A stretch of 64,000 bases of DNA from Gammaproteobacteria bacterium. GTDB lineage: Bacteria > Pseudomonadota > Gammaproteobacteria > Eutrophobiales > Eutrophobiaceae. The stretch is taken from positions 2,946,610 to 3,010,609 of the forward strand of contig CBDBDW010000002.1 in NCBI GenBank assembly GCA_965204045.1. The letters run 5' to 3'. The notes beneath the pieces were generated by a model. The model did not search any database and was not told the DNA's origin. It was given only the letters and a program-made list of their open reading frames with translations. The translations under genes were made by a program, and so were the position numbers. Shown in pieces: positions 8,682-40,585 of the stretch; the first letter of the stretch is position 1; every line of letters starts with the position of its first letter.

Positions 8682-8694
8682 TAAAAGAACTGGT

Positions 8695-8719
8695 GGGGAC
8701 AGAATTTAATTCTGTCCCC
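8695..8719 (+). terminator. rho-independent terminator hairpin after zapE (ggggacagaa-tttaa-ttctgtcccc followed by ttt)
   Basis: Perfect 10-bp stem read directly, followed by a T-run. Confidence 0.55.
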
Positions 8720-8783
8720 TTTATGCTGTGCTATCATTCCACAATTTCAGGGGAACAATAACAAGATCGAGGAGGTGTCATCG

Positions 8784-12700: not shown

Positions 12701-13193
12701 AAACGGCAAGGTGGAGGAAGATGGCTGGCAAAGGATTGCCGGGACGGATTCTCAACGACCATTACCTGAAGGCGATTTGATAGTGCCTCTTGACTATTGG
12801 CGCCGTAACAGGGAACTGCTGGCACGGCACAACGGCAGGATTGGCGTCTGCCTGGCGGGAGAGGACAGTCTCGATGATTGCTCCGGTTCGCTGGACCAAT
12901 TTGAACTGGTCGCCCTGGAGTTTCCCAAATTTACCGACGGGCGCAGTTATTCCCACGCCAGGCTGTTGCGCGATCGGTACGGCTATCGCGGTGAGATACG
13001 CGCGGTGGGGGAAGTGCTCAGGGATCAATTATTTTTTATGCAGCGTTGCGGCATCGATTCATATCAGGTCCGGGAGGGCAAGGATGCGGAAGATGCATTG
13101 AAAGGATTGTCGGACTTCAGCGTGAAATACCAGACAGCCGCAGACGGCGCGCCTCCCGTCTACAAGCTCAGGCAAAAGCAACGAAATCAGTGA
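12687..13193 (+). CDS. DUF934-family protein (conserved partner downstream of cysI)
   Basis: 168 aa, overlaps the cysI stop. The cysI-DUF934 arrangement is conserved in gammaproteobacteria. Confidence 0.65.
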   Translation: MRVIKNGKVEEDGWQRIAGTDSQRPLPEGDLIVPLDYWRRNRELLARHNGRIGVCLAGEDSLDDCSGSLDQFELVALEFPKFTDGRSYSHARLLRDRYGYRGEIRAVGEVLRDQLFFMQRCGIDSYQVREGKDAEDALKGLSDFSVKYQTAADGAPPVYKLRQKQRNQ

Positions 13194-13210
13194 GCCGGTG
13201 GTATCCCGGT

Positions 13211-13552
13211 TTAACCCTTCAGTGAACTGATTCCTGTATCCAGGTCATCATGAATGGTGAACAGGTTCACCAGACCGCTTATTTCGAATATCTTCATGAT
13301 GTTATCATTCAGGGAACACACCGAGAAAGAACCGGAGCTCTTGGCAAAACTCTTTGTGGCAAAAATCAGGACGCGCAAACCGGCGCTGGAGATGTAATTT
13401 ACATCGGAAAAATTAATGATCATCTTGTTGCAACCGTTTTTTATTTCCTCCATGACCTTGTCATGTACTTGTCCCGAGTTGGTTGCGTCAACCCTCCCCT
13501 TCAGGTTAAGAATAACAATACCGTCCTGATTTACTGTTTCAATCTCACTCAT
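13211..13552 (-). CDS. STAS-domain anti-sigma-factor antagonist (RsbV/SpoIIAA-like)
   Basis: 113 aa. Conserved phosphorylatable segment NYISSAGLRVL. Confidence 0.8.
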   Translation of the reverse strand: MSEIETVNQDGIVILNLKGRVDATNSGQVHDKVMEEIKNGCNKMIINFSDVNYISSAGLRVLIFATKSFAKSSGSFSVCSLNDNIMKIFEISGLVNLFTIHDDLDTGISSLKG

Positions 13553-13750
13553 TATTTTTCTCTTTCTCTGTTGGTCGCCGGCCTGAATTCAGCCGACATA
13601 GTATAAACTTTTGAATTTATCTGTCCAGCATTTTACAATAACATAAAATAATAATACATTATCGGGCAAAGTGGGCTAAATATATACTAGGGAGGTCCGG
13701 CATACAAGTGAATATCGATATTACATCGTATTTTTTGTGGGGATTGGTCG

Positions 13751-14245
13751 ATGAATAAAAAAAATGAAAGAATTAGATGGGTGTTGGAAAAACTGGCCGA
13801 CCTGGCAGAATTTTCAGAAGAATTCAGGTCCTATTGCGAAGAAAAGAACCTGGACGACGGCAAGATTTTTGAACTGGAATTGTCCCTGGAGGAATTGATC
13901 GTAAATTCATTTACCCACGGTTACAAGAGTAATGAAGATGGTACCGTCACCGTGGAATTCGAAGACACCGGACATGAAATCAGGATCAGTATGCGGGACA
14001 AAGCGCCTCCGTTTGATCTGTTCAGGGATGCGCCGGCGCCGCGGCTTGGCGGGGAAGACCCGGACCCGGAAGTTGTGGCTGAACTCGAACCGGATTCCGG
14101 ACCTGGGCAGGGAGATGAGACAGAACCAAAACAGGAGAAGGAGGGAGGCCTGGGCATCCACCTGGTAAAAAGTCTCAACGACAAGGTTGAGTACTATGGT
14201 TCAAAGGATGGAAACATCGTTGTCATTATAAAGTCCAAATCCTGA
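13751..14245 (+). CDS. anti-sigma regulatory factor, Ser/Thr protein kinase (RsbW-like HATPase_c) with an acidic insertion
   Basis: Histidine-kinase-like ATPase motifs (E..L..S..H; GGLGIHLV). About 40-aa acidic insert. Confidence 0.7.
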   Translation: MNKKNERIRWVLEKLADLAEFSEEFRSYCEEKNLDDGKIFELELSLEELIVNSFTHGYKSNEDGTVTVEFEDTGHEIRISMRDKAPPFDLFRDAPAPRLGGEDPDPEVVAELEPDSGPGQGDETEPKQEKEGGLGIHLVKSLNDKVEYYGSKDGNIVVIIKSKS

Positions 14246-17785: not shown

Positions 17786-20767
17786 GTGGATAACATTCGT
17801 ATCAGGGGCGCCAGGACCCACAACCTGAAGAATATCAATCTGGATTTTCCCAGGGACAGGATGATAGTGATCACCGGCCTGTCAGGATCCGGCAAGTCAT
17901 CCCTGGCGTTCGACACCATCTACGCGGACGGGCAGCGGCGTTATGTTGAATCACTTTCCGCGTACGCCAGGCAGTTCCTGTCAATGATGGAAAAACCCGA
18001 CGTCGATCATATTGAAGGACTGTCCCCGGCCATCAGCATCGAACAGAAGTCAACTTCCCATAATCCGCGCTCCACCGTGGGGACTATTACAGAGATATAT
18101 GACTACCTGCGCCTGTTGTTTGCCCGGGTGGGTGAACCTCGCTGTCCGGAACACCAGACTCCTTTGGCAGCCCAGACCATCAGCCAGATGGTGGACCTGA
18201 TACTGGAACAACCGGAAGGAAGAAGATTGATGTTGCTGGCTCCCGTGGTCCAGGGAAGAAAAGGTGAGCATATACAGGTAGTGGAAAGAATCAGGGCGGA
18301 AGGTTTCGTGCGGGCGCGTATCGACGGAGAAGTGCTTGAACTGGATAACGTGCCGGCAATGGACCTGCGCAGGAAACACACGATTGAGGCGGTGGTGGAC
18401 CGTTTCCGGGTGCGCCCGGATATCGGTCTGAGACTGGCGGAATCCCTTGAGACCGCAGTACGTCTTTCCGACGGTCTGGCAATCGTCGCTTCCATGGATG
18501 AAACCGATGCCGATGACATGGTGTTCTCAACCCGGTTCGCCTGTCCGGAATGCGGTTACAGCCTGAGTGAACTGGAACCCCGGCTATTTTCGTTCAATAA
18601 CCCGGTCGGCGCCTGTCCCCACTGTGACGGTCTGGGCGTAATCCAGTTTTTCGATTCCGACAAGATAGTCCAGGATCCCGCATTGAGCCTGCCGGACGGC
18701 GCCATACGCGGCTGGGACAGACGCAATGCATATTATTTCCAGCTGATCAAATCTTTGGCAAAACATTATGCTTTTGCCATTGATACACCGTACGCCCGGC
18801 TGCATGAGGATATTCGCCGGGTGATCCTGTACGGCAGCGGTTCTGAAGAAATCGAATTTGAATACCTGCACAGCAAACGCGGCATCATACGCCGCACCCA
18901 TACCTTTGAAGGTGTAATTCCGAACATGCAGCGGCGTTACCGGGAGACCGAATCGGTCATGATCCGGGAAGACCTGAACAGATACCAGAGCAGCCAGCCT
19001 TGTCCGTCCTGCTCAGGCCAGCGCCTCAACCAGGCGGCGAGGCATGTATTCGTAAACAATACCAGCCTGCCGACGATTACCGCGATGACCGTGATGCATG
19101 CCCGGGAGTTTTTTAAACACCTGGTCATACCCGGACGGCGCGGGGAAATCGCCACGCGCATATTAAAGGAAGTTGAGGACCGGTTGCGCTTCCTTGTCAA
19201 CGTGGGTCTGGATTATCTTGCGCTGGACAGGAGCGCGGAAACCCTGTCCGGGGGCGAGGCGCAGCGCATTCGACTGGCCAGCCAGATTGGCGCAGGCCTG
19301 GTCGGTGTGATGTACGTTCTGGATGAACCATCCATCGGTTTGCACCAACGGGACAATAAACGCCTGCTGGCCACGTTGAGGCAATTGCGCGACCTGGGTA
19401 ACACGGTGATCGTTGTCGAACACGACGAGGAGGCCATCAATGCTGCCGACCATGTCATCGATATGGGGCCGGGGGCCGGGGTGCATGGCGGCAGGGTGGT
19501 CAAGCAGGGCAGCCCCGATGATATCGCCCGGTGCAAGGAATCCCTTACCGGCGCCTACCTCTCGGGAAGAAAGCGCATTGACATGCCGTTACAACGCATC
19601 AAGCCTGATCCGGAACGGGTGGTGGTATTGTCCGGCGCTACGGGAAACAACCTCAAGTCGGTCCGGCTGGAACTGCCGCTTGGCCTCATGACCTGCATCA
19701 CCGGTGTTTCCGGATCAGGCAAGTCAACCCTGATTAACGATACCCTGTACCGGATTGCCGCGGGCGAACTGAACTACGTCGGCGCAAAACCGTCCCCATA
19801 CCGGACCATCTCCGGCCTTGAGTATATCGACAAGGTCGTGGATATCAATCAAAGCCCCATCGGTCGCACCCCGCGCTCGAACCCTGCCACCTATACCGGC
19901 CTGTTTACTCCCATCAGGGAGCTTTTCGCCGCCACCCAGGAGGCGCGCTCCAGGGGCTATAAACCCGGCCGTTTCAGTTTCAACGTCAAGGGAGGGCGTT
20001 GTGAGGCGTGCCAGGGAGACGGGCTGATCAAGGTGGAGATGCACTTTCTGCCGGACATATATGTCATGTGCGACGTCTGCAAGGGCAAACGCTATAACAG
20101 GGAAACCCTGCAGGTCCGGTACAAGGGTAAAAACATCCATGAAATTCTGGATATGACGGTGGAAGACGCCCGGGAATTCTTCTCGCCGGTGCCGCTCATC
20201 GCCCGCAAACTGCAAACCCTGGTAGACGTGGGGCTGTCCTATATCCGTCTCGGCCAGAACGCCACGACCTTATCCGGAGGTGAGGCGCAACGGGTGAAAC
20301 TGTCCAGGGAGTTGTCCAAACGGGATACCGGCAAGACGCTCTACATACTGGATGAACCGACCACCGGCCTGCATTTCCACGACGTCAAGCAATTACTCGG
20401 CGTGCTGCATCGATTGCGCGACCACGGTAATACGGTAGTCGTCATCGAACATAACCTGGACGTCATCAAGACTGCGGACTGGATCGTCGACCTGGGGCCC
20501 GAAGGGGGCGATGGCGGCGGAGAGATCATTGCCGCCGGCACACCGGAAGACATTTCAAAACTGGCGCATTCCCATACCGGGCGGTACCTGGCGCCGGTAA
20601 TAGACGAACACCGGGTTTGTATACCAGACAGCACAGACAAACGTGAAGAAATGAGGCCTCAGTTATTAAGAACCGAACTGATCAAGGGACAAAACAGCCC
20701 GGTTACAGATAACTGGAGTGCTGACGACTTTTTAGACAGGGTAAGGCAACAAGCCGGTGATAAGTAA
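17786..20767 (+). CDS. uvrA: excinuclease ABC subunit A, with a ~50-aa C-terminal extension
   Basis: Two ABC ATPase modules (GLSGSGKS twice) and zinc-finger cysteines. Divergent from ssb as in enterobacteria. Confidence 0.95.
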
Positions 20768-20880
20768 TCCCAACTGTCAGGTGCGCCAGGCTGCGGATAA
20801 CGATTTATCGGATATTGATATTCATATCCTGCATAAGTTCATACTTCCTGATAAGCGTCTGACATAGTATGGTGGGAATC

Positions 20881-21174
20881 TCAGCGTCCGGGTTTTTCCT
20901 GGATGATTGAGGGTTGCTTTTCTATCAACGCCAATAGAATCCGCGCCGGCCCTTCCGGGCGCTGGCGCCCCAGTTCCCAATTTTTCAGTGTATCGAGCGA
21001 GACATCAATGCTTTTGGCAAAAGCTGTTTGTGAGAGCCCTGTCTTGCCTCGTACAGTCACGACATCGGGGGCTGATACTTCAATTCCGTGCACCGCGAAA
21101 CCATTGCGACCGCCCTCGAGGTAAACGCGGGTATCCTTAAGGCCGGTCATGACTTTATCGAATGCTTCACTCAT
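20881..21174 (-). CDS. HTH (Xre-family) antitoxin, HigA-like
   Basis: 97 aa with a helix-turn-helix segment LSQTAFAKSIDVSLDTLKNWE. Overlaps the upstream toxin gene by 4 bp. Confidence 0.7.
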   Translation of the reverse strand: MSEAFDKVMTGLKDTRVYLEGGRNGFAVHGIEVSAPDVVTVRGKTGLSQTAFAKSIDVSLDTLKNWELGRQRPEGPARILLALIEKQPSIIQEKPGR

Positions 21175-21569
21175 TGGCGCCTCCTGTAATTTTCAATCAT
21201 ATCTTTTGCAGCAGCTACCAGTGCCTCTCGTTCCCCGGAGCTGAGATTTGTTTTCTCATTCTTGGCAAATACGGCAAGTAAAAACACGGGAATGGTTTTG
21301 TCGGAAAACAGAAACACTACACGCGCCCCGCTGCTTTTACCACGCCCTGAACGGGCAAACCGCATTTTTCGTATGCCTCCTCCAAGTGACACGCCAGACT
21401 TTGGATTCTTTGCTACTGTGTTGACGATTTCATCTCGTTCCGAGTCTGACAGTATTCCCTTTGCTGCCGTGAGATACGCAGGCGTCTCAACGACAGTCTG
21501 TAAACTACCGCTCATAGAAAAATCATAGGTATCCCGGGCCTCGAAGTCAATAGCGATTGTATAACACAA
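21171..21569 (-). CDS. RelE/HigB-like toxin (Gp49/phage-derived RelE-fold family)
   Basis: Motifs RKMRF...GARVVFLF...VFLLAVFAKNEKTNLS are characteristic of HigB/Gp49-like toxins. Toxin-first orientation with an Xre antitoxin downstream. Confidence 0.65.
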   Translation of the reverse strand: MCYTIAIDFEARDTYDFSMSGSLQTVVETPAYLTAAKGILSDSERDEIVNTVAKNPKSGVSLGGGIRKMRFARSGRGKSSGARVVFLFSDKTIPVFLLAVFAKNEKTNLSSGEREALVAAAKDMIENYRRRQ

Positions 21570-21678
21570 ACCGGGGTAATCGCATACTTTTGTTGCGTCT
21601 GCCTGAACCGGACTTTGATATACTTTCTTCTACTGTGATTGATAACATGGGAACGGAAATGAAAAAGGAAGAAACAGA

Positions 21679-24360
21679 ATGAATGAGAAACCAAAGGAAA
21701 ACCGCTTCCTGGACGCGTTGGAAGCCCTGTTTACCGGCGCCGAAGTAGAGGGCGAATCCGGCTTCATCAACCTGATGAGGATGAAACGGGGATATTTTAA
21801 ATCCTTGCGTCCGAAACTCATGGAAAAAATCGACAGTCGTGCCGGGAAAGATACGGCTTTCCGGGAAGAACTGTTCGATAAACTGTACACCTTTTTCAGT
21901 CGTTATTTCTGTGAAAGCGGCTCGATCTATTTCCGTCACTTGCCTGCTTTCTCAAAAATCTATGAGCGCGTCTATTCCTCTGATGAAGACGTTGCGTTGT
22001 CATGGAAAACCCACATGCTATATTACGTGAAATCGGACATCCTGGTGCGTTCCATGCCGGTAAGGCTGGAGGACAAACAGAATCCCGCACACAGGAGACT
22101 GTTTTACTTCGACGCTTCCCAGGTTGAACACAAACGTAACAACGAGCGACGCGAGTTTGTTTTTGAGTTCGCAAAAGTGGAAAGAAGCCCGGAAGGCAAC
22201 GTTGTACATCTCTCGGTATCCTACTCCCAGAAAGGCAGAAAAACCAAGCTTGAGACCATTATCAGAAAGGCCAGAAACGCGCCCGGCGCCAAGGTAATGC
22301 TGAGTGAAGATGACTTACAAGACGCATTTCGGGTTTTCAAACGGCAGACGGAAGCCGATTTCTTTATCAACAAGGATGCGCGGGGCTTTCTCCGCGAACA
22401 ATTCGACTTGTGGCTTTACCAGTACATGTTTCAGGATGAGACAATTTTTGAACAAAAACGGCTTGACCAGTTGCAAGCTATCCAGCTAACCGCGTACGAC
22501 ATCATAGATTTCATTGCCCAGTTTGAGGATGAACTGCGGCGGACCTGGGAGAAACCGAAGTTTGTACGCAACGTCAATTACGTGGTGACACTGGATAAAC
22601 TGCCCCCCGGACTGCTGGATAAGATTGTCAGGCACAAGGGCGCGGCAGCGCAGGTTGAGGAATGGCAATCGCTGGAACTGGTGGATGAGCAATTTTCCAT
22701 CGCGGAATTAAACAAGGGGGACGGTGAACTGGACCTGGAGAGTAACGGTCCCGTTAACAGGGCTTGCCGCTTTCTGCCTTTGGATACAAAGCATTTCAAA
22801 GAACTGGAGATGGAAATTCTTGGCGCGCTGGGCGACTTGGACGAGGCACTGGACGGCGAACTGGTACACAGTGAGAACTGGCAGGCGTTGAATACCCTGC
22901 AAAAGCGGTATAGGGGAAGGGTGAAGTGTATTCACGTTGATCCGCCCTATAACACGAAAACCAGCGGTTTTCTTTATCGGAATCAATACAAGCATTCCAG
23001 TTGGCTTACGATGATGGAAAACCGTGTGAATATTGCGTTGGAATTACTTGCGGAAGACGGTTCATTTTTGTGCCATATTGATGAGAACGAATACGAAAGA
23101 CTCCAGCTTCTCATGGAGAATACGGGATTGCTCAATCCCGGAACGGTAATATGGGATAAGAAAAACCCGATGATGGGAGCTAGAGGGATTTCTACTCGGC
23201 ATGAATATATCTTGTGGCGGACAAGACACGAGGGGGCTTTCTATCTCAAAAACACGAATGTCCAAGCCATGCTCGCTAAATCCAAAGAACTTATAAAAAA
23301 ACACGGTGGTGTGAATGGCAATGTGCGTAAAGAATTTTCGCGATGGGTAGAGGGCAATGTAGATCTCACCGGAGGAGAACGTGCTTACCGATTTTTAGAT
23401 GACAAAGGACAAGTTTATCGGGGTGTCGCTATGGTGTGGCCGAATCCCAACCCTGCTCCTGATAAATTCTTTGTTCCTTTAATACACCCTCTCACGAGAA
23501 AGCCATGTCCAGTTCCCCAAAGGGGTTGGTCGCAGTCGCCAGAAAGAATGAAAAGTCTTTTAGAAAAAGGGGAGATTCTATTCGGCAAAGACGAAACTAC
23601 TCAGCCACAGCGTAAGATATATCTCACCGGAGAATCCAGGCGCCCTGTCTCAACGGTCATTGAAAATGGTAAAAGAGGAAAGAAAGAAATAGATAATTTA
23701 GGACTGGACTTTTCCTACTGTCATCCTACATCACTTTATGAAGAATTGATAAATGCGTCTTCAATAAATGGAGATGGAGTCGCTCTTGACTACTTCGCTG
23801 GCTCTGGTACCACTGGCCATGCAATCATCAACCTAAATAAGGATGACGGTGGCAATCGAAAATATGTGCTCGTCGAAATGGGAGATTATTTTCATACAGT
23901 CCTGCTCCCGCGTCTAAAGAAAATCGTTTATTCCAAAGACTGGAAAGACAGGAAGCCGGTTTCCCATGAAGGCAGCAGTCACTTTCTCAAATACTACACC
24001 TTGGAACAATACGAAGAAACCCTGAGAAATTCCCACTATCAGGACGGCGAACAACTGGAACTGGACAGCATGAAATCGCCGTTCGAGCAATACGCGTTTT
24101 TCGGAGATGACAAACTCACCCACTCAGTCAGGCCGTTAAAGAACGGCAAATTGAAAATCAACCTCCACGCGCTCTACCCGGACGTAGACATCGCGGAGTC
24201 ACTCTCCAACATCCTCGGCAAACCCATCCGTCATCGTACGGCTGACACCGTAACGTTCACCGATGGCGCCACCGAAAAAACCAACCTCGCAACCATGACC
24301 GAGCAAGAGAAACGGCATTTCATCTCATTGGTGAAACCCTACCTGTGGTGGGGAGAGTGA
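21679..24360 (+). CDS. type III R-M Mod-like N6-adenine DNA methyltransferase (beta class: DPPY, then TRD, then FxGxG) with a ~400-aa N-terminal extension of unknown function
   Basis: IHVDPPYNT (motif IV) about 290 aa upstream of DYFAGSGTTGHA (motif I), which is the beta-class order typical of Mod. 893 aa, about 250-300 aa longer than typical Mod. Confidence 0.75.
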   Translation: MNEKPKENRFLDALEALFTGAEVEGESGFINLMRMKRGYFKSLRPKLMEKIDSRAGKDTAFREELFDKLYTFFSRYFCESGSIYFRHLPAFSKIYERVYSSDEDVALSWKTHMLYYVKSDILVRSMPVRLEDKQNPAHRRLFYFDASQVEHKRNNERREFVFEFAKVERSPEGNVVHLSVSYSQKGRKTKLETIIRKARNAPGAKVMLSEDDLQDAFRVFKRQTEADFFINKDARGFLREQFDLWLYQYMFQDETIFEQKRLDQLQAIQLTAYDIIDFIAQFEDELRRTWEKPKFVRNVNYVVTLDKLPPGLLDKIVRHKGAAAQVEEWQSLELVDEQFSIAELNKGDGELDLESNGPVNRACRFLPLDTKHFKELEMEILGALGDLDEALDGELVHSENWQALNTLQKRYRGRVKCIHVDPPYNTKTSGFLYRNQYKHSSWLTMMENRVNIALELLAEDGSFLCHIDENEYERLQLLMENTGLLNPGTVIWDKKNPMMGARGISTRHEYILWRTRHEGAFYLKNTNVQAMLAKSKELIKKHGGVNGNVRKEFSRWVEGNVDLTGGERAYRFLDDKGQVYRGVAMVWPNPNPAPDKFFVPLIHPLTRKPCPVPQRGWSQSPERMKSLLEKGEILFGKDETTQPQRKIYLTGESRRPVSTVIENGKRGKKEIDNLGLDFSYCHPTSLYEELINASSINGDGVALDYFAGSGTTGHAIINLNKDDGGNRKYVLVEMGDYFHTVLLPRLKKIVYSKDWKDRKPVSHEGSSHFLKYYTLEQYEETLRNSHYQDGEQLELDSMKSPFEQYAFFGDDKLTHSVRPLKNGKLKINLHALYPDVDIAESLSNILGKPIRHRTADTVTFTDGATEKTNLATMTEQEKRHFISLVKPYLWWGE

Positions 24361-24364
24361 TACA

Positions 24365-25015
24365 GTGAAGCAAGAAAATTACACCGCGCCCGTTTTTCGA
24401 CAAAAGGCATTCCATTGTCCGATATGCAATGTTTATGCAAACCAGGATTGGTATCCTGCCTACTATGGTTTTAGGGAACTTGGGTTAAACCAGATAGAGA
24501 TTCTACAAATTGCTCTTTGTGCTCATTGCGGACATTTTTCTTTCTGGCTGAACGGTAATCTCGTATATCCCAAAAAAATTACCGCCCCACTTGCGCATAG
24601 GGACATGCCAGAAACCGTAGTCGGCTATTACAACGAAGCGCGGGAAATATCTACTTCTTCTCCAAGATCTGCAGCAGCATTGCTTCGCATCGCCGCCAAA
24701 AAGCTCTGTGAAGCACTTGGAGAAAATGAACCTAACCTGAACCGAGCTATAGGCAACTTGAGCAAAAAAGGTTTGCCGCAAAATGTAATAAAATCACTGG
24801 ACACAGTCAGGATTGTGGGCAATGAAGGTGGCGCTCACGAAGGGCAGATTGATCTGACTGGTGAAGACAATAAGGAAATTGTTGACAGGTTATTCTGGTT
24901 AATCAATTTCATTATTGAAAAAACCATTACAGAACCAAGCGAAATAGAAAACACCTTCAGTTCCTTGCCGGAAAATAAAAGACAGGCTGCTGAAAAAAGA
25001 GACGAAGGAAAATAA
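24365..25015 (+). CDS. zinc-ribbon + DUF4145-like (possible HEPN-like) domain protein, translationally coupled to mod
   Basis: N-terminal CPIC...CAHC zinc ribbon. C-terminal segment RIAAKKLCEAL...SLDTVRIVGNEGGAHEG resembles DUF4145 as recalled from memory. GTG start 4 bp after the mod stop. Confidence 0.5.
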   Translation: MKQENYTAPVFRQKAFHCPICNVYANQDWYPAYYGFRELGLNQIEILQIALCAHCGHFSFWLNGNLVYPKKITAPLAHRDMPETVVGYYNEAREISTSSPRSAAALLRIAAKKLCEALGENEPNLNRAIGNLSKKGLPQNVIKSLDTVRIVGNEGGAHEGQIDLTGEDNKEIVDRLFWLINFIIEKTITEPSEIENTFSSLPENKRQAAEKRDEGK

Positions 25016-25187
25016 CAGTTGCAAAAGAATAGATTCGCTTCCTACTGTCACTTAAACATCGTGAATGGTGGAGGAAATAAGAATAGAACGGCAAAAGAAT
25101 CCTCTTCAGGATTTTGCACTGTAGCTATAGATATTCAGTTTATTGGAAGAAAATACCAAGCATAATTAATAACTGGAACTAGACAGC

Positions 25188-25481
25188 ATGAAATCACCGT
25201 TTCAGCAATACGTTTTTTTCGGTGACGATAAACTCGCTCATGCGGCCCAACCATCGGAAAACGGCAAACTGGACATCAACCTGCAAGACCTGTACCCTGA
25301 TATAGACATCGCAGAGTCACTTTCCAATGTCCTGGGCAAACCCATCCGTTGCCTTACAACAAATAGTGTTACCTTTATCGATGGAACGACAGAAAAAACT
25401 AACCCAGCCACCATGACAGAAGAAGAAAAACGCCATTTTCTCTCACTTATTAAACCTTATTTGTGGTGGGGTGTTCTATGA
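25188..25481 (+). pseudogene. diverged duplicate of the mod 3' end (97 codons, homologous to mod residues ~797-893); recombination scar or orphan fragment
   Basis: Protein identity to the Mod C-terminus is about 75% (MKSPFQQYVFFGDDKL.. versus MKSPFEQYAFFGDDKL..). Nucleotide identity about 75%. Copy B is more AT-rich. Confidence 0.7.
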
Positions 25482-26881
25482 ATCTCAATCTGAATATTAA
25501 AAATATCGGCAAGTTGACCAATGCTGAAATTCATATTGCAAACTTCACAGTGTTTGCAGGACCAAACAATACAGGTAAGAGTTTCGTTTCTAAGCTGCTG
25601 TATTCGCTGTTTAATGCTATGAACGCCAATCATATACAGATACATGTGAACAACTTGATCAAGCCCGTTGTAAGCAGTTTTTTCAGGCTGGATAGATTGG
25701 CACACTATAACATCGAAAAATCACAGCCTTTGCTGGAGGAGGGTGACCTAGAAAAACTGGAAGCCCTTGTCGAAGATTGTATGCCTGGTGACTCTAAAGA
25801 ACTGGATGAGGTTATAAGTAATCTTATCCACCAGACGAATGAGATTGAGAAAAAAGTAAACGATATTCAGATCCCTGAAGGAGTAAAAGAGGAAGCGAAA
25901 GGAAGGCAAAATGGAACATCACCTATCATGAGAATGAAAGAAACACATGAGGAATTAAAAAAATCTTTGGATAAATTAAAACAAGATTTAAGCGGGGGGG
26001 ATTGGCTGGATTTTATAGTCGCTGGGATGAAGTACAAAATCCGGCAAAACCTGATTCATAATTTCCAAACACCTACATTATCGGGCCTCATAGCTGAAGA
26101 CGATGCACCCTCAGAAATCATGTTCAAAAACTTCGGAAAATTCGAACTATTAAATGATGAAATCGAATTTGCGATAGACGAAATTTTGGTGCAGGAATTA
26201 CAACATCATTCCAACGTAATCTATCTGGAATCGCCCGTCTACTGGAAATTAAAGAATGCCCTAGATGATATAAGACGTAACCCGCGGAGAATGTTCTTTA
26301 GAAGAGAAAGGGAGCTACTGAGTGGCGTTCCCGAGTACTTCTATGATCTGATCACTGCACTAAGTTTTCAGCGCACAGGTGGCATTGCATTTCCGAACGT
26401 ATATGAAAAGTTGACGGGCAAGGAGGTCATGGGCGGGAAGATTGCCATTTCGGAAAGTGGCAATTTATCATTTCAAGAGAATGAGCGAAATTTCACATTG
26501 CCGCTTACCGCGATGGGAATAGTGAACATGGGAATATTGGCGTTGTTAATTGAACGTAATGTACTGGATAAAGATACTGTTATTTTTATCGATGAACCGG
26601 AAGCGCACCTACACCCCGCTTGGCAGGTCGTCATGGCGGAAGCCCTCTTTGAACTGTCCCGCTATGGTGTGAACGTAGTCATTGCTACCCATAGTGTGGA
26701 CATTCTTAAATGGCTGGAAGTACATGTGAAGAAAAAGCCTGAAGACAAGCAACTAATTGCACTAAACCAGTTTCCCGTCAACAACAGCGAAGTTGATGAA
26801 GATTTTGAAACCAAAATGGCAAATATCAAGCAGGAATTAACCCAGCCCTTCTCTGACTTGTATGTGGAAGGACTGTTATGA
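25478..26881 (+). CDS. ABC/SMC-like AAA ATPase (AAA_15/AAA_21-type) with a coiled-coil insertion; defence-associated ATPase embedded in the R-M locus
   Basis: Walker A FAGPNNTGKS. Walker B/D-loop VIFIDEPEAHLHP. H-loop IATHS. About 110-aa coiled-coil insert. No Toprim or other nuclease domain. Low-GC gene. Confidence 0.7.
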   Translation: MNLNLNIKNIGKLTNAEIHIANFTVFAGPNNTGKSFVSKLLYSLFNAMNANHIQIHVNNLIKPVVSSFFRLDRLAHYNIEKSQPLLEEGDLEKLEALVEDCMPGDSKELDEVISNLIHQTNEIEKKVNDIQIPEGVKEEAKGRQNGTSPIMRMKETHEELKKSLDKLKQDLSGGDWLDFIVAGMKYKIRQNLIHNFQTPTLSGLIAEDDAPSEIMFKNFGKFELLNDEIEFAIDEILVQELQHHSNVIYLESPVYWKLKNALDDIRRNPRRMFFRRERELLSGVPEYFYDLITALSFQRTGGIAFPNVYEKLTGKEVMGGKIAISESGNLSFQENERNFTLPLTAMGIVNMGILALLIERNVLDKDTVIFIDEPEAHLHPAWQVVMAEALFELSRYGVNVVIATHSVDILKWLEVHVKKKPEDKQLIALNQFPVNNSEVDEDFETKMANIKQELTQPFSDLYVEGLL

Positions 26882-27444
26882 CGTCTCTGGATAGCTTCCG
26901 GGAGAAACAGAATGTTTCCTCCGGCAAAGATTTTGAAGCCTTCCGCATGGATAACACAAAAAAGGCCGAAGGGATTCCTGATATGAGAACACACGTCGGG
27001 TTGGGTAGTTGTGATTGCTGTGACTATTTTCTTGTCCATGAAAATAAAGTTGTGCTGGTTGAAGAAACCCGGTTAGCGGATACCATTAAAACCATAGGAA
27101 AAAAATACTCTTACCTTACTGAACCCCACAGGCAGAAATTTACCGAAAATTGTGTCAGGCAGGAAAACTATGTGAAGGTATATGGGGCTTTGCTCGTCCT
27201 GTGCCGTCTGGCTGCGAAGTGCCGGGAAGCATCGACCCTGATACAAGACAAAAAACACGTTTTTTATCTTGTTGTCAAAGGAATGGAAACAGAAGAGGCA
27301 AAAAGGATGTTCGATAACTTGAAAGACAATTTGCAGTTGCAGTTACAAAGCGTCCTGACTCCGGCGGTAATGGACAATGTGGAAGTGATACCGTCCCGTG
27401 AGCTCCTGGCCGACAAACTATCACAACATGCAACCCGCTCTTGA
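26878..27444 (+). CDS. 188-aa partner protein of the ATPase (possible RloB/AbiLii-like or PD-(D/E)xK-like effector); function unknown
   Basis: Start overlaps the ATPase stop (ATGA). Contains IPD...x19...VHENK, a possible PD-ExK arrangement, and a CDCCD cluster. No confident domain call. Confidence 0.4.
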   Translation: MTSLDSFREKQNVSSGKDFEAFRMDNTKKAEGIPDMRTHVGLGSCDCCDYFLVHENKVVLVEETRLADTIKTIGKKYSYLTEPHRQKFTENCVRQENYVKVYGALLVLCRLAAKCREASTLIQDKKHVFYLVVKGMETEEAKRMFDNLKDNLQLQLQSVLTPAVMDNVEVIPSRELLADKLSQHATRS

Positions 27445-30400
27445 ACCCATCACCCAAACCCTGAACTACGGCGACCTGCCCGAAACCTGGCGCGTGCCGG
27501 AGATTGAACGCTTTTCAGTACAGAAAACACTGTATGACTATCAGGAAGACGCGCTTCGGTGTGCAGCGCGGGCGCTGTACCTGTACTATGGAAAGGAAGG
27601 AAATGACTACCAGACCGGGGAATCGCAAGCTGCCGACAGCGCCCGTAAGCAGGATTTTGCCAACCGGTACTCCTCTTCCCAACTTAACGACTTTTCAGTA
27701 AAGCAGTACGAAACCAACTCAGACAGACAAAACCGGAGAGAGAGCCCCGTCTTTAAAATTCTTTCCGAGTATATAACGCCGCAAGGTGAAGAAATTCCAT
27801 ACCGGCAACTCATTAATCGCATGTGCTTCTGGATGGCAACCGGCAGCGGGAAAACCCTGGTCATGGTAAAACTGGTTGAGTACTTGCACAGGTTGATGGG
27901 ACACGGTGGAATTCCACCGCACAAAATCCTCATTCTTGCTCCGAGCGATCATCTTATCGGACAGATTCGCCGGGCTATAGAAGAATTCAACCAAGCCGGC
28001 CTGAATATCGATTTTGTCCATCTTCGGGAACATGGAAAAATATCGCAGAGCCGACTCGGAGACTCTGTAACAGTCTATTACCATCGTAGCGACAACCTCT
28101 CTGACATGCAGAAGGAGGCGCTGACAGATTATCGCACCCACGAAGACGCCGGGAAATGGTATGTCCTCCTGGACGAGGCCCACAAGGGAGGCAAGGAAGA
28201 TTCAAAACGACAGGCGTATTACGCCATCATGGCTCGCCATGGGTTTCTGTTTAATTTCTCGGCCACGTTCACTGACCCTGAGGATATTGTAACGACAGTC
28301 AAGAAATACAACCTGGAGGAATTCATCAGGAACGGGCATGGTAAAAATATTTACCTGAATGAGAAAGAATACGAGGTGTTCAAACACAGGGAGCAGGAAA
28401 TCAGCCACGACGAAAGACGGAAAATCGTCTTGAAGTCACTTATCGCGCTGGCTTACGTGTCGCTCAGGGTGAAGGAACTCCGCAAAAATACGGGTTTGAA
28501 AGAACTCTATCACCTGCCTCTGATGCTGACCCTGGTCAACTCGGTGAATACCGACGTGGAAAATGAGAGGAATGACCTGTGGGCGTTTTTCCAGACCTTG
28601 CGCGAGATTGCTACGGGAGAGGTGGATGACGCGCTTTTCCGGACAGCAAAAAAAGACCTTGCGAAGGAATGGGCAGATGCGACCTTTCTTTTTGGGGAGG
28701 TCGGCGGAGAAATTATCCGGCTTGACCAGGCCCGAATCACAGGCATAAAACTAACCGACCTGCGCGAAGCGGTGTTTTCAGGTCGCAGAAAAAGCTCGTT
28801 ACAGTTAATCCGCAGCAAGGACAACAAGGAACTCGCTTTTCAGGTCAGAAACGCAGATGCCCCGTTTGCGCTGATTCGCATAGGAGATACCTCCAAGTGG
28901 CGGAATAACCTCCTGACAGGTTACGAAGAAACCAAAACCTTGCAGGAAAAATCTTTTTTTGATGACCTGGAAAAAAGTTCAATCACAATTCTCATGGGGT
29001 CCCGCTCTTTCTTCGAAAGCTGGGACTCCAACCGCCCCAATGTCATCAACTTCATCAATATCGGTGGAACCGAGGCAAAGAAATTTGTCGTGCAGTCCGT
29101 CGGGCGCGGCGTGCGCATCGAGACATTGCCCAACCAACGCCGCCGTTACGCCTTCCTGCCGGACAGTAACGAAAAGAACCTGCTTCAGGATTACGCCTGT
29201 GAAGTGCAGCCCGCAGAGACGCTGTTCCTTTTTGCCACTAATCGCAACGCGGTGAAGTCTGTTCTGGAAGGGCTGCAAACGGAAAAAAGCGGTATTTTTG
29301 AAAACGTTGACGGCTTTGTCAGGTCGCCAAAGCCGGTGATCAACGGCCAGTTACTGCCGCTCCTGGTCCCGGAATACAAAGAGGAAAAGACAGGTACGGC
29401 GACAAAGGCAAAATTTGCAATGAGTTCGGATACGCTGAACAGGTTCAGGAACTACCTTGCAAAAACTTCGGATTCGGCGCTTGCCGTCCGCGACAACCTG
29501 GTAGCCCGGGAGATAGCTGAGTTACGCGCATGCGCAGAAGGCAAAGAAAATATCCGCTTGGATCCGGGAAAGAACTACAGCAGCCTTGCCTTCCTGCAAA
29601 ATCGCCTCATATCCCACCTGTCAAAAACGGGGAGGATAGCCGATGGCCTGCGCGAACTGGATGAGGATGAAGACATCGTTCACTTTCGCAAAATACAAGT
29701 GCGACTGTCTCAAGGAGACCTGATCGATTTACAGAAGAAACTCAAAGCTGTCGCACAAGGCGATATATCCGAAGATGAAAAGAAAAAACGGGCGCTTCAG
29801 TACGCAGAAAACAAAATCAGCGAGGAAGAATTCATGGAGTATATCAGCGGCAAATCTGAAGAAACATTCAACGACTTGAAAATCAAAAACATTTCCAGGC
29901 ATTACTATGCGCCGGTTATTGCCGCCCAGACCGGAGCAGCGGATTTCATTAAGCACATCATCAGGGAAGAAAGCGAAGTGCGGTTTCTTGACAACCTGGA
30001 ACAATGGTTAGAAGACAATGACCCAGGATGGGACGCCTGGATGTTCAGCAAAATAGATGAGACATTGGACAATATCTATATACCTTACTACGATGCTACA
30101 ACCAATGAATACACTCGCTTCCTGCCGGATTTCATCTTCTGGATGTACAAGGATGATGAATACCGCATCGTTTTTGTTGATCCGAAAGGGACGGCGCACA
30201 AATCCGCCTATCTTAAAATTGACGGATATCAAAAACTGTTCGAACCGGAAAATAAACTGAAAGAATTCAAATACCGGAAACATGATCCTGGAACAAGCGC
30301 GGTATCGGAAGAGGATAACCCGGTTTCCGGCGCACGGATAAACGTCAGACTTTTGATGTTTAATGCGGATAGCGCCGTGCCGGATGCTTACAAGCGTTTC

Positions 30401-30448
30401 TGGACGGCTGCTCCGGCAGATGTTTTTTCCTGTGCCGCAAGCGGATGA
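27428..30448 (+). CDS. type III R-M Res-like subunit: SF2 helicase (motifs I, II, III, VI) with a C-terminal PD-(D/E)xK endonuclease
   Basis: MATGSGKT (I), LLDEAHKG (II), FSAT (III), QSVGRGVRI (VI). C-terminal LPDFIFW...IVFVDPKG. Start taken at MQPALEP (27428), overlapping the upstream stop. Confidence 0.75.
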   Translation: MQPALEPITQTLNYGDLPETWRVPEIERFSVQKTLYDYQEDALRCAARALYLYYGKEGNDYQTGESQAADSARKQDFANRYSSSQLNDFSVKQYETNSDRQNRRESPVFKILSEYITPQGEEIPYRQLINRMCFWMATGSGKTLVMVKLVEYLHRLMGHGGIPPHKILILAPSDHLIGQIRRAIEEFNQAGLNIDFVHLREHGKISQSRLGDSVTVYYHRSDNLSDMQKEALTDYRTHEDAGKWYVLLDEAHKGGKEDSKRQAYYAIMARHGFLFNFSATFTDPEDIVTTVKKYNLEEFIRNGHGKNIYLNEKEYEVFKHREQEISHDERRKIVLKSLIALAYVSLRVKELRKNTGLKELYHLPLMLTLVNSVNTDVENERNDLWAFFQTLREIATGEVDDALFRTAKKDLAKEWADATFLFGEVGGEIIRLDQARITGIKLTDLREAVFSGRRKSSLQLIRSKDNKELAFQVRNADAPFALIRIGDTSKWRNNLLTGYEETKTLQEKSFFDDLEKSSITILMGSRSFFESWDSNRPNVINFINIGGTEAKKFVVQSVGRGVRIETLPNQRRRYAFLPDSNEKNLLQDYACEVQPAETLFLFATNRNAVKSVLEGLQTEKSGIFENVDGFVRSPKPVINGQLLPLLVPEYKEEKTGTATKAKFAMSSDTLNRFRNYLAKTSDSALAVRDNLVAREIAELRACAEGKENIRLDPGKNYSSLAFLQNRLISHLSKTGRIADGLRELDEDEDIVHFRKIQVRLSQGDLIDLQKKLKAVAQGDISEDEKKKRALQYAENKISEEEFMEYISGKSEETFNDLKIKNISRHYYAPVIAAQTGAADFIKHIIREESEVRFLDNLEQWLEDNDPGWDAWMFSKIDETLDNIYIPYYDATTNEYTRFLPDFIFWMYKDDEYRIVFVDPKGTAHKSAYLKIDGYQKLFEPENKLKEFKYRKHDPGTSAVSEEDNPVSGARINVRLLMFNADSAVPDAYKRFWTAAPADVFSCAASG

Positions 30449-30494
30449 AAGGCAGACGACCAATTACTTTTTCTGAACAAACAGATTCTCATTT

Positions 30495-31430
30495 ATGACT
30501 GCTCTCATCTGCGGTTCCTTTGCATACGACCGGATCATGGTCTACCCGGGGCGTTTCAGGGAAGACATACTGCCGGACAAGATCCATATGCTCAATGTCT
30601 GTTTCGTCGTCCCGGACATACAGCACGAGTTCGGCGGCTCCGGGGGGAATATCGTCTATAACATGAAACTGCTGGACGCGGACTGCCTGCCCATGGGCAC
30701 GGTAGGGGTTGATTTTGCCGAATACCGCAAATGGCTGGAACAGAACGGAGTCGATCAACGACACCTGCGGGTAGTGGAAAATACTTTTACCGCGCAATGT
30801 TTCATTACCACCGACCTGGATAACAACCAGATCACGACCTTCCAGACAGGCGCCATGGCCCATTCCCATGAAAATCGGGTATCCATGGCCGAAGGCGTCA
30901 GTATCGGCATCGTCGCCCCGGACGGCAAGGAAGGAATGTTGCAACATGCCCGGCAGTTTGCCGAACAAGATATCCCGTTCATCTTCGACCCGGGCCAGAA
31001 TGTCACCGTGTTGACCGGGGACGAACTGTTGGACAGTCTTGAGCACGCGGCCTGGGCGGTCTTCAACGATTATGAGTGGCAACTGGTTACGGACAAAACC
31101 GGCCTCAGTGCCTCCGGGGCGTTGGACCGCGTCGATAGCCTGATCGTCACCCGCGGCGCTTCAGGCTCTATCATTCATACCCGCGCCGGCCCTGTAGACA
31201 TTCCGACTGCCAGGACGGAACACCTGGCCGACCCGACCGGGTGCGGCGACGCTTACCGCGCCGGCCTGTTGTACGGCCTGATGCGCGGCATGGACTGGGA
31301 AACCACCGGAAGGATTGCTTCCCTGATGGGCAAGATCAAAATTGAAGTGAGAGGCACACAGAATCACATATTCACCCGGCAGGAATTTGAGGATTTATTC
31401 AAACAATACTTCGGTTATTCTTTCTCTTGA
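30495..31430 (+). CDS. PfkB-family carbohydrate/nucleoside kinase
   Basis: Ribokinase-like fold with GG dipeptide (FGGSGGN) and C-terminal DPTGCGDAYRAG anion-hole motif. Confidence 0.7.
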   Translation: MTALICGSFAYDRIMVYPGRFREDILPDKIHMLNVCFVVPDIQHEFGGSGGNIVYNMKLLDADCLPMGTVGVDFAEYRKWLEQNGVDQRHLRVVENTFTAQCFITTDLDNNQITTFQTGAMAHSHENRVSMAEGVSIGIVAPDGKEGMLQHARQFAEQDIPFIFDPGQNVTVLTGDELLDSLEHAAWAVFNDYEWQLVTDKTGLSASGALDRVDSLIVTRGASGSIIHTRAGPVDIPTARTEHLADPTGCGDAYRAGLLYGLMRGMDWETTGRIASLMGKIKIEVRGTQNHIFTRQEFEDLFKQYFGYSFS

Positions 31431-31437
31431 TAGCAAT

Positions 31438-31461
31438 GGGGACGGACTTAAGTCCGTCCCC
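31438..31461. repeat. REP-like palindrome ggggacggac-ttaa-gtccgtcccc (family member 1), probable terminator/RNA hairpin
   Basis: Perfect 10-bp stem 8 bp after the kinase stop. Related copies at 44109-44159 and 56428-56452. Confidence 0.6.
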
Positions 31462-31591
31462 GGTTGCTTCGGATACTCCTTCCAATAACTAAATCCCCGG
31501 TTTGCAACTCCGGGATCTTTACTCTATACTGCCCGACCTTAATCCTTGCCTCACCGTATTGACGGGAGGCTGAATCCATGAGGATATGACA

Positions 31592-32101
31592 ATGAGACAT
31601 TATGAAGTCGTGTTTCTGGTCCACCCGGACCAGAGCGAGCAGGTGCCTGCGATGATCGAACGGTACCGTTCCATGATCGAGTCGAACCAGGGCTCCATAC
31701 ATCGCCTGGAAGACTGGGGCAGACGCCAACTCGCTTATCCGATCAACAAGATCCACAAGGCGCATTATGTGTTGATGAACATCGAGTGCGACCAGGCTAC
31801 CCTGCAACAGATTAATAACGCTTTCAGGTTCAATGATGCCGTTATCCGCGATCTCATTTTTCGCAGGGATGCCGCCATCACGGAACCTTCACTCCTGGCG
31901 AAAAGCAAGGAGCAGGAACAGGAAAGAGAAATGGCAGGCGATCCGGATAACACTGTCCGTGAAGATGCAGCCAGGGTTTACTCCGGGGCCGAAGAAACCG
32001 GGGATGACGGCAGCGGGGAGGAAACCGAGTCAAGTGCGCCGGCGCAAGGCACAACCAACGGTACATCCGCTGACGAACCGGAAGTTGAGACGGACGGCTG
32101 A
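31592..32101 (+). CDS. rpsF: 30S ribosomal protein S6 with a long acidic C-terminal tail
   Basis: [18 protein letters not shown] matches the S6 N-terminus. Tail is about 55 aa and E/D/G-rich. Confidence 0.9.
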
Positions 32102-37969: not shown

Positions 37970-38323
37970 GGATCACATACGGACGCTATGTTAAGATAGC
38001 GCCCATTGTACCCAAAAAACCCGGCACAGAGAACGTCATCCCGGATTTTTCACCAGGCAATGCGGTGATTGTGCCGGATTTTTGCGCCAGTGAGCGCCTA
38101 CAACCGAAAGCATAACCGTAGTTGATGTATCCTTCGGGTGAATGCCATAGATTACGAGCCATTATACAGTCAGGGCCTATTTGAATCCCGCACTTTCTAA
38201 CGCGGGATTGTGGGTATATTAACCTGTGGAATTTGGGACAAAAGGCTTATACTCTTGTATGCTTACTTTATCTAATGTTTACTCTGGAATTAGTTAACCA
38301 GGCTGGATACAGGTTTAATCGCA

Positions 38324-39646
38324 ATGGACTCGAATAACACCCCTCTCCGAAATAACGGGCAATACCTCAACATGCTGCAGGGTGCGTTGCGTGCTGATTT
38401 GGATTTTCATGGTACGAACGGCAAACACACTACCCATGGCTGGCATCCTTTTCCGGCTAAATTTCCACCCCAACTACCACAGTTCTTTATTGAAAGCCTT
38501 TCGGATAAAAATGAAGTTGTTTTTGACCCCATGTTCGGTTCAGGTACAACGTTGGTAGAGGCTATGCGCCTGGGACGGCGTGCAATCGGTTGTGACATAG
38601 ACCCTTTGGCACGGATGATCACGCAAGCGAAGTTAGTTGCCATAAAACCGGTGAAAACACTGGAGATTGGATACAGGATCGTCGAAGCGGCACAACGCGA
38701 TTTTCATCATGACCAGGATCAACTGGAACGGGAACTGAATCAACGCTTCGATTCCAAAACACGTGAATTTATTGATTATTGGTTTTTGCCCCAGCAACAA
38801 TTGGAATTGCTTGCACTTTTGCAGGCTATCGAGGCAATACAGCAGGATGAAATGCAGAAATTCTTCAGGATGATTTTTTCAGCAACAATCATTGCCAAAT
38901 CAGGAGGGGTTTCCCTGGCTCGTGATTTAGCCCATACTCGACCACATAGGGTATCTGATAAAAAACCAAACTCGGCTTTTGTCGAATTCGCCAAGCGCTT
39001 AAAACATAATCTGGCTTGTTATACATCAACAGGTTTCCCTCGCCAGGAGCACATAGCAAAACAAGAAGTTGATCTTCGGGTCGCAAATGCAGATAAAACC
39101 GGTATCCCTTCTTCAAGTGTCGATTTGATTGTTACGTCGCCACCTTACGCGAATAATGCGATCGACTACATGAGAGCGCATAAATTTTCCCTGGTCTGGT
39201 TTGGTTGGAAAATAGAAGACCTTACGAAGATTCGTGCACGATATCTGGGACATGATGCCACTAACGGTGCTCAGTTTGAGCAGCTACCTCAACAATGTGA
39301 AAAAACGCTTACCAGATTGGTCGATCTTGACTATAAAAAAGCTGCGGCTCTACGCCGGTATTTCAGCGAGATGTCGGCTGTGATAAATGAAATGAAGCGA
39401 GTTTTGAAAAGAGGCAGAGCAGCCATAATCGTAGTTGGCACTTCCAATTTGTGCGGCATTGACGTGGAAACACAGAATGGGCTTGCTGCCATTGGTGAAT
39501 ATGTCGGTTTTGATTTGGCGGGAATCGGTATTCGCCGTCTGGATCGTGACAGGCGCATGATGCCGGCGCGCTGGGGCAAAGAACAACGCACACAAATTGA
39601 GAAACGGATGCATGAAGAATATGTAATCGGATTGTTAAAACAATGA
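38324..39646 (+). CDS. type II DNA methyltransferase, N4-cytosine/N6-adenine family (motif I DPMFGSGTT ... motif IV SPPY)
   Basis: FxGxG-type SAM motif at about residue 68 and TSPPYANN at about 265. SPPY is most typical of m4C methyltransferases. Low-GC gene. Confidence 0.75.
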   Translation: MDSNNTPLRNNGQYLNMLQGALRADLDFHGTNGKHTTHGWHPFPAKFPPQLPQFFIESLSDKNEVVFDPMFGSGTTLVEAMRLGRRAIGCDIDPLARMITQAKLVAIKPVKTLEIGYRIVEAAQRDFHHDQDQLERELNQRFDSKTREFIDYWFLPQQQLELLALLQAIEAIQQDEMQKFFRMIFSATIIAKSGGVSLARDLAHTRPHRVSDKKPNSAFVEFAKRLKHNLACYTSTGFPRQEHIAKQEVDLRVANADKTGIPSSSVDLIVTSPPYANNAIDYMRAHKFSLVWFGWKIEDLTKIRARYLGHDATNGAQFEQLPQQCEKTLTRLVDLDYKKAAALRRYFSEMSAVINEMKRVLKRGRAAIIVVGTSNLCGIDVETQNGLAAIGEYVGFDLAGIGIRRLDRDRRMMPARWGKEQRTQIEKRMHEEYVIGLLKQ

Positions 39647-40491: not shown

Positions 40492-40585
40492 AAACTTGAG
40501 AAACTTCTTAAGCGGCTGGTCAATAAATCATTACACAGACAAGGCTTTGTTGATTCCTGGGCTTTTCTAACGAGGGTTCAGAGTT

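Follow-up and report, generated by a model that had tools for sequence, protein, structure and literature searches.

This study concerns a restriction-modification (R-M) locus in a stretch of 64,000 nt, referred to as the window, which we read as part of a metagenome-assembled genome (MAG) of an uncultured marine bacterium. At this locus a type III-like operon carries its methyltransferase gene (mod) and its helicase-nuclease gene (res) apart from each other, with three further genes in between. We consider the gap between mod and res to be a landing site for independent anti-phage cassettes, two of which are stacked here, and give this reading a probability of roughly three in four. The first cassette is a homologue of the single-gene system RAZR, also known as PD-T7-4, and the second is a pair of genes for an ABC-type ATPase and a partner protein of 188 aa. 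Each system most likely works on its own. An initial annotation had described the three genes as one new back-up module of the R-M system, and in doing so had missed a relic of a second mod gene that lies between the two cassettes. Related loci are given below by number (L001 onwards), and coordinates of all features are collected in Table 1.

The arrangement itself is as first described, with all named genes present and mod and res held apart by about 3.1 kb of additional genes. Precisely, the gap from the mod stop to the likely ATG of res (27428) comprises 3,067 nt. Every gene named is located on the plus strand, and the genes are tightly joined: the RAZR gene begins 4 nt past the mod stop, the gene of the 188-aa partner overlaps the stop of the ATPase gene (ATGA), and the res start overlaps the end of the partner gene by 17 nt. 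From this co-orientation and the abutting or overlapping stops and starts, expression as one operon is probable. A scan for promoters and terminators gave nothing above shuffled controls, and the spacer behind the RAZR gene showed no similarity to mod, res or the cassettes in comparisons with relatives.

The possibility that the host genes are inactivated pseudogenes, mentioned in the initial annotation, was checked. Both are intact and full length against their relatives, and by this comparison neither is to be regarded as a pseudogene. Mod qualifies as a predicted beta-class N6-adenine methyltransferase akin to known type III Mods, with matches to Pfam N6_N4_Mtase (4.9e-30), PADLOC MTase_III (8.5e-202) and EcoP15I Mod (4ZCF; 5e-40 across residues 431-735). 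The motifs claimed for Mod, DPPY...FxGxG, can be read directly in the translation, and motifs of a superfamily 2 (SF2) helicase and a C-terminal PD-(D/E)xK-like motif are present in Res. In Mod, VDPPYNT precedes FAGSGTT; in Res, ATGSGKT, DEAH and the C-terminal PDF...VDPK (PD...DPK) are invariant in 11 relatives. Res matches Pfam ResIII (2e-15) and DEAD, as well as PADLOC REase_III in a partial match only (1.5e-25), and is 93% identical to the Res of L007 over its full length. It has no NCBIfam match above the cut-off and, even when used as a profile, finds no sequence relative in the PDB, EcoP15I Res included. For this reason, the Res family being unusual, we regard “type III-like” as the safe label for the system. 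In the public annotation, the Res relatives of L007, L008 and L009 are assigned to Pfam PF27151 (YagJ), and the Pfam scan of the window Res gave no match to PF27151.

The two cassettes are separated by the mod relic. Its open reading frame (ORF) of 97 codons duplicates the last 95 aa of Mod (residues 798-892) with 75% amino acid identity (E 4e-51), and on the nucleotide level a direct repeat of 300 nt is formed (24050-24349 and 25168-25467) with 74% identity. The relic is derived from a different allele, as its nucleotide identity amounts to 76-78% when compared with the 3′ ends of mod in L007, L008 and L009, versus 74% with mod of the window. The ATPase gene starts with the ATG at 25478, which overlaps the relic stop (ctATGA), and the public gene call of 467 aa agrees with this start. 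Since relic and ATPase start align contiguously with the Mod-3′/ATPase junction of L013, where the gene order is mod, ATPase, partner, res and nothing else, the relic appears to preserve an ancestral junction. The proposed course of events is that an older operon with the order of L013 took in a “mod-RAZR” segment by recombination. The operon would thereby have lost the greater part of its old mod, with the 3′ end remaining as a scar that is fused by the ATGA to the ATPase start.

The slot behind mod is variable among close relatives. L007 carries mod, RAZR, an SLFN-like protein (Pfam SLFN_AlbA_2/HATPase_c_4), a ParA-like ATPase, the ATPase pair and res; L008 carries mod, HATPase genes, the pair and res; and L009 carries mod, an M78 peptidase with a DUF4411 protein (Rosmer-like), the pair and res. 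The window is 80% identical to L007 on the nucleotide level from 21611 to 25011, which covers mod and RAZR, and 90% identical from 26374 to 32000. In relatives, the occurrence of RAZR and that of the ATPase pair are independent.

The gene of the first cassette had been listed as a DUF4145-like gene within a candidate new module. By its similarity, the product belongs to RAZR/PD-T7-4, a known stand-alone system consisting of a single gene. Residues 5-214 match PADLOC PD-T7-4 on profile positions 3-208 of 211 (1.6e-72), and the comparison with the solved chain of PDB 9Y9C gives 9.4e-46. The zinc-ribbon cysteines C18, C21, C52 and C55 align with that chain, and R149 and H158 align with the catalytic R146 and H154 of RAZR-Ec. 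A functional selection in E. coli led to the discovery of PD-T7-4 (Vassallo et al. 2022, PMC9519451). The later study that gave it the name RAZR showed that it forms a 24-mer around ring-shaped phage proteins, after which RNA is cleaved and the infection aborted (Zhang et al. 2026, PMC13017515). In E. coli, RAZR usually adjoins an integrase and not an R-M system. By analogy with this homologue only, the window protein would likewise assemble as a 24-mer around phage rings, with its RNase activity being switched on and infection aborted. Apart from its genomic context, the gene offers nothing new.

The ATPase of the second cassette shows the Walker A motif GPNNTGKS and the Walker B/D-loop motif DEPEAHLHP, both of which had been recognized at the outset together with the overlapping 188-aa gene, and it matches Pfam AAA_15 and AAA_21. 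Among the best 25 of 124 PADLOC matches are HEC-02A (1e-31), PD-T4-4_A (7e-25), NsnB (8e-25) and PDC-M47A (8e-20); the HEC-02A match covers residues 283-442 only, with other ABC families scoring close behind. Compared with the experimentally tested HEC-02A, the ATPase is 29% identical over 125 aa (E 5e-16), and PDB matches are weak and limited to PtuA, GajA, OLD and AriA. The single-sequence structure model, with a predicted local distance difference test (pLDDT) score of 37, is unusable, so that the coiled-coil insert proposed in the initial annotation could not be verified. The centre of the gene (about 25634-26373, residues about 52-298) has no nucleotide similarity to L007, L008 or L009, while both gene ends and the downstream genes are 77-90% identical to these loci. 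The gene matches L001 throughout (85%). Because its centre is unalignable with L007 and its ends are alignable, the gene looks like a mosaic between strains, and the fast-changing insert may be the sensing part. In L046, two tandem ATPase homologues (7133-8506 and 8607-9995), 35% and 47% identical to the window ATPase, are located upstream of one partner gene.

The 188-aa partner belongs to no Pfam family, and its PADLOC matches are sporadic and weak. Its family is small, with 73 clusters at 90% identity in a set of 5.8 billion proteins and 262 representatives at 50% identity in a set of 1.84 billion. Within the family, there is little or no variation at D25, D49, E62 and K100, and four cysteines (C45, C47, C48 and C109) are conserved as well. 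The protein possibly has a restriction-endonuclease-like fold, and its role as a putative nuclease is plausible. In the signature GLGxCxCCDY, three of the conserved cysteines (C45, C47 and C48) stand directly ahead of the invariant D49, and C109 is located on a long helix; a metal or iron-sulphur site may be present beside the putative active site. Judged from analogous systems such as HEC-02, PD-T4-4 and Gabija, the ATPase would serve as sensor or switch and the partner as effector, probably a nuclease. The 62 genomes found to encode partner relatives (L011-L072) are nearly all MAGs, and many have names of sponge associates in their record titles (Poriferihabitaceae, Spongiihabitans, Porifericomitaceae, Porisulfidus). 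Many phyla are represented, with Latescibacterota, Nitrospirales, Arenicellales, Terriglobia, Dehalococcoidia and Limisphaerales among the groups found, and the family seems to be limited in its ecology and shared by horizontal transfer.

The dependence of the pair on its host was assessed in a census of 62 species-level genome loci. At about 58 of these, a full-length ATPase homologue is encoded immediately upstream of the partner, so the two genes appear to form a fixed pair. It had been asked whether the pair is repeatedly flanked by mod and res, and the answer is divided. The pair is located between intact Mod and Res genes at 10 loci, to which two truncated but consistent contigs can be added, beside but outside an intact mod-res unit at three (L055 and L038 among them), and next to mod-3′ and/or res-5′ fragments only at no fewer than nine. 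The remaining 38 loci are without any trace of the Mod/Res family. The pair stands among housekeeping genes in L004-L006, L153, L155 and L156, and in L154 it is followed by a res stub of 198 aa (8548-9144), with neither mod nor res intact. In L001-L003 the pair is retained with 79-84% protein identity and preserved uvrA...pfkB synteny, adjoining a type II R-M system, and res is exactly absent (equivalent to window 27426-30486). The persistence of the pair at the same site with res precisely missing argues for an autonomous pair that is not tied to a host enzyme in the manner of PrrC. L045 (8070-12038), like L154, presents a decaying host around an intact pair: large internal deletions join residues 6-88 of mod to 785-873 and residues 6-103 of res to 598-1009.

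These data bear on the initial proposal that the three inserted genes are one abortive-infection module, which would guard the R-M system like PrrC in EcoprrI and be fired when phages block restriction. We consider this unlikely. It does account for the embedding, co-orientation and translational coupling of the genes with mod and res, and for the linkage of the pair to the Mod/Res family in part of the census; moreover, ABC ATPases of the same clade include the guardians PrrC and PARIS. It is, however, disfavoured by the mod relic between RAZR and the pair, by the independence of RAZR and pair from each other in relatives, and by the trigger of RAZR, which consists directly of phage ring proteins and not of a loss of restriction. 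Furthermore, the pair is kept without res at the same site and without any R-M system elsewhere, and HEC-02 works when cloned alone. The back-up role is thus unsupported, and what the initial annotation had named as grounds for rejecting its own proposal, embedded genes that match a known system and occur mostly outside R-M contexts, largely applies: RAZR is a known system, and most pair loci are free of Mod and Res.

In a further scenario, ATPase and partner are integral subunits of a four-component R-M-like system comparable to Hma (helicase-methylase-ATPase), with RAZR as the sole passenger. The minimal order of L013 would fit this arrangement, as would the 17-nt overlap of partner stop and res start found in many loci, the res 5′ pieces that persist behind the partner even where res is gone, and the relic, in which the old mod stop overlaps the ATPase start. 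Such a system is nevertheless improbable, considering that mod and res are directly adjacent without the pair in 29 of 69 loci of the family and enclose unrelated cargo in others, that the pair stands outside an intact mod-res unit in L055 and L038, and that most pair loci of the census have no trace of mod or res. In PADLOC, likewise, Res is not matched by any Hma model, nor do the matches listed for Mod include one. Least probable is that the relic is a working element, such as an alternative 3′ exon by which the Mod C-terminus would be switched or a small expressed protein, or an assembly artefact: its ORF stays open over 97-101 codons, up to precisely the point where the ATPase gene begins, but the last 95 aa of Mod are 70-80% identical across alleles and lie C-terminal to the methylase core match (residues 415-739), so that swapping them is expected to give little diversity, inverted repeats and a recombinase are not present, an identity of 74% is incompatible with a collapsed or duplicated assembly, and comparable relics with variable left ends occur in many independent assemblies.

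Several points weigh against independent cassettes at a landing site as well. Intact or relic mod and res genes adjoin the pair in at least 24 of the 62 loci, which is far above chance, and the junction at which the partner gene overlaps the res start is conserved; in view of this linkage, a functional tie of the pair to the R-M system is possible. The activity of Mod and Res is deduced from their intact motifs only, all evidence is computational, and the host is an uncultured bacterium. Finally, the recombination may have taken any of several routes, namely a double crossover with one illegitimate end, the single-crossover insertion of a circle, or tandem operons followed by deletion.

The view of the mod-res gap as a landing site can be extended to the whole family. 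A metagenome scan for Res relatives yielded 80 loci with 35-60% identity from many environments, of which 69 hold both genes. The gap between mod and res is at most 60 nt in 29 of these, 61-500 nt in four and more than 500 nt in 36. The cargo ORFs, practically without exception, have the same orientation as mod and res. They are of the defence type and their families recur in differing combinations, including PDC-S23/S05 (RhuM and Fic), SoFic, PDC-S01 (AAA_14/DUF4143) and PDC-S13 (Bro-N), a type II R-M pair, DUF6119 and DUF3800 proteins, OLD nuclease, PtuA-like and AriA/NsnB-like ATPases, Rosmer-like M78 and DUF4411 proteins, and SLFN-like and ParA-like proteins. The genes between mod and res of the window include no integrase, and neither an integrase nor a transposase was detected in the representative cargo genes of related loci that were scanned.

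Where a locus holds several cassettes, in arrays of up to four, fragments of the host genes stand between them. Behind the preceding cassette come the initial 50-100 codons of res, and the final 20-290 codons of mod then run up to the mod stop just ahead of the next cassette, with the same geometry as at the intact genes. Such res-5′ and mod-3′ fragments were found at cassette borders in L014, L031, L032, L034 and L042, as well as in 10 of the 36 cargo-bearing metagenome loci when each gap was searched with its own mod and res ends. In L034, two res-5′::mod-3′ fusions of 228 nt (10482-10709 and 13234-13461), 96% identical to each other, flank one cassette. The idea that the L034 scar is a mobile element shared between genomes was rejected, as other loci contained no copy spanning the junction. 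Some scars are in-frame fusion mini-ORFs (the two of L034, L031 8058-8570 and L042 10494-11549), which run from the res start codon, overlapping the previous gene, to the mod stop ahead of the next gene. Such mini-ORFs would keep translational coupling along the array. In-frame fusions account for four of six composite scars, a proportion which is not significant (p about 0.1; two are copies of each other).

Scars in the form of direct repeats would be expected from the single-crossover insertion of a circle composed of scar and cassette, and such repeats would also permit excision; an identical pattern would result from tandem operons that lost the internal res...mod segment. Tentatively, and with less than even odds, we suggest that the mod-res gap is an integrase-free cassette array, built from units of mod 3′ end, cargo and res 5′ start in which host-gene fragments act as portable homology arms. 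If this is true, ordinary homologous recombination could insert, stack or remove any cargo in all family members. The res-5′::mod-3′ scars, such as the window relic and the two L034 scars, would then be footprints of a concrete mechanism for the accumulation of embedded defence genes.

Table 1. Features of the type III-like locus and its two cassettes in the window
Feature	Position	Strand	Description	Basis
mod	21679-24360	+	type III-like beta-class N6-adenine DNA methyltransferase, predicted; 893 aa; intact	Pfam, PADLOC, EcoP15I Mod
Cassette 1, RAZR/PD-T7-4 homologue	24365-25015	+	216 aa; N-terminal Cys4 zinc ribbon and DUF4145/HEPN RNase domain	PADLOC, PDB 9Y9C
Spacer behind RAZR	25016-25167	no strand	152 nt	without similarity to mod, res or cassettes
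Junction scar	25168-25481	+	mod-3′ relic of a different allele, last ~100 codons; open ORF 25188-25481	direct repeat
Cassette 2, gene A	25478-26881	+	ABC-type ATPase; 467 aa	Pfam AAA_15/AAA_21, PADLOC
Cassette 2, gene B	26878-27444	+	188-aa partner; putative effector	family alignment
res	27428-30448	+	SF2 helicase-nuclease, predicted; 1006 aa from ATG 27428 (ORF opens with GTG 27398); intact	Pfam, PADLOC

The island containing these features extends between uvrA (17786-20767) and a gene for a PfkB-family kinase (30495-31430) and has a G+C content of 0.40-0.50, compared with about 0.55 in its flanks. Between uvrA and mod, the minus strand carries genes for a RelE-family toxin (PF06296, 2.1e-12) and a NadS/MqsA-type helix-turn-helix antitoxin (20881-21174 and 21171-21569). 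The toxin-antitoxin segment (20822-21610) is missing in L007 and L009, where the flanks of uvrA and mod join directly, which indicates that it was inserted separately, on the margin of the island. The interval from uvrA to pfkB is a variable hotspot in the lineage (L001-L003 and L011, 6961-10552, versus 20822-30486 in the window): some strains harbor a type II R-M system (N6_N4 methylase and an EcoO109I-like enzyme) and behind it the ATPase pair, and in others the interval is occupied by the type III-like operon and its cassettes. Additional patches of low G+C content (0.44-0.48 versus about 0.55-0.60) at 1001-3000, 13001-14000, 38001-41000 and 57001-58000 of the window may be acquired islands.

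Compared with type III R-M systems of the EcoP15I type, the host operon has the same order of mod ahead of res, a beta-class Mod and a Res with SF2 motifs and a C-terminal PD...DxK. Differences are an extra N-terminal region of about 400 aa in Mod and, in Res, the lack of a detectable PDB relative and the partial extent of the REase_III match. In contrast to Hma, the PADLOC matches of Res are REase_III and PbeA only. Membership in Hma was rejected, since no Hma model was found for Res or among the best 25 PADLOC matches listed for Mod or for the ATPase. Unlike a guardian of the PrrC type, in which an ABC ATPase is fused to an anticodon nuclease, the window ATPase has no fused nuclease domain, and PrrC is not among its best 25 of 124 listed PADLOC matches; whereas PrrC occurs almost only inside its R-M host and is silenced by it, the pair is often found without any R-M system. 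The RAZR homologue has the same length and architecture (Cys4 zinc ribbon and DUF4145/HEPN) as its E. coli counterpart and keeps the catalytic arginine and histidine, but has one extra residue between the two.

The closest architectural comparison for the second cassette is HEC-02, which consists of an ABC ATPase and a NERD-like PD-(D/E)xK nuclease (Payne et al. 2024 preprint, 10.1101/2024.01.29.577857). HEC-02 protects when cloned away from its host system, and both genes are needed (10.1101/2024.01.29.577857). Both systems are overlapping two-gene units in which the ABC ATPase gene precedes that of a small protein of about 170-190 aa, the window ATPase finds its best PADLOC match in HEC-02A, the partners have a D-x12-E hairpin motif in common, and HEC-02 too was found embedded in another helicase/methylase system. 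On the other hand, the window ATPase exceeds HEC-02A by 125 aa and differs from it in the middle, and the partner has EET(R/Q) where HEC-02B has ExK, plus the conserved cysteine cluster. Homology of the partner with HEC-02B was tested with the published sequence and a profile of 35 HEC-02B sequences and was not supported: hhalign of this profile against two partner-family profiles gave probabilities of 0.8-3.3%, with the D-x12-E hairpin alone being aligned. PADLOC HEC-02B gives an E-value of 3.5e-3 and matches only six of 37 and three of 54 family members, with E-values of at least 1.5e-4, and a Pfam scan of the family gave no NERD match. We therefore describe the pair, as far as its sequences indicate, as a HEC-02-type architecture with an uncatalogued partner family. 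The partner set had been presented as new, which holds for the 188-aa protein; the ATPase pair is of a known architectural kind and RAZR is known. As an uncatalogued two-gene system, the pair has been overlooked by Pfam and PADLOC despite being widespread across phyla of sponge-associated bacteria.

With regard to the proposed array, integrons and Rhs/CDI “orphan” arrays offer an analogy. There, too, exchangeable cassettes are stacked serially behind a fixed gene, with repeated boundary elements and displaced 3′-end remnants of the upstream gene ahead of older cassettes. Unlike integrons, the loci examined have no integrase and no attC-like hairpin sites, and their boundaries are mod and res fragments of variable length, which points to homologous or illegitimate and not to site-specific recombination.

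Embedded defence genes have been described for Hma, BREX, DISARM and type I R-M systems, where 96.7% of the cargo is co-oriented with the host system; classic cases are PrrC in EcoprrI and DarTG2 in a type I system. Embedding has been used to find defence systems that were new, and its mechanism has been left open in the literature under the term “genomic sink”. The statement of the initial annotation that an embedding of this kind was not recognized as described therefore holds in part: embedding itself is known, and in the limited literature searched we found no description of a type III-like embedding host or of host-gene fragments at cassette borders. What is new, as far as this literature shows, is that the host is type III-like, that the partner represents an uncatalogued family and that scars mark the junctions. 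Type III-like Mod/Res operons thereby represent a further host family for embedding, with about half of its members carrying cargo, and the border fragments, some of which are present twice in one locus, give an indication of how arrays are assembled and can be searched for systematically, in type I, BREX and Hma loci as well. As in the described hosts, the cargo is co-oriented between the host genes, occupies about half of the host loci and is drawn from the same pool (PDC-S01, S05, S13, S23, SoFic, OLD, Septu-like ATPases and Rosmer-like pairs). The locus differs from them in its type III-like Mod/Res host and in arrays that are punctuated by fragments of the host genes.

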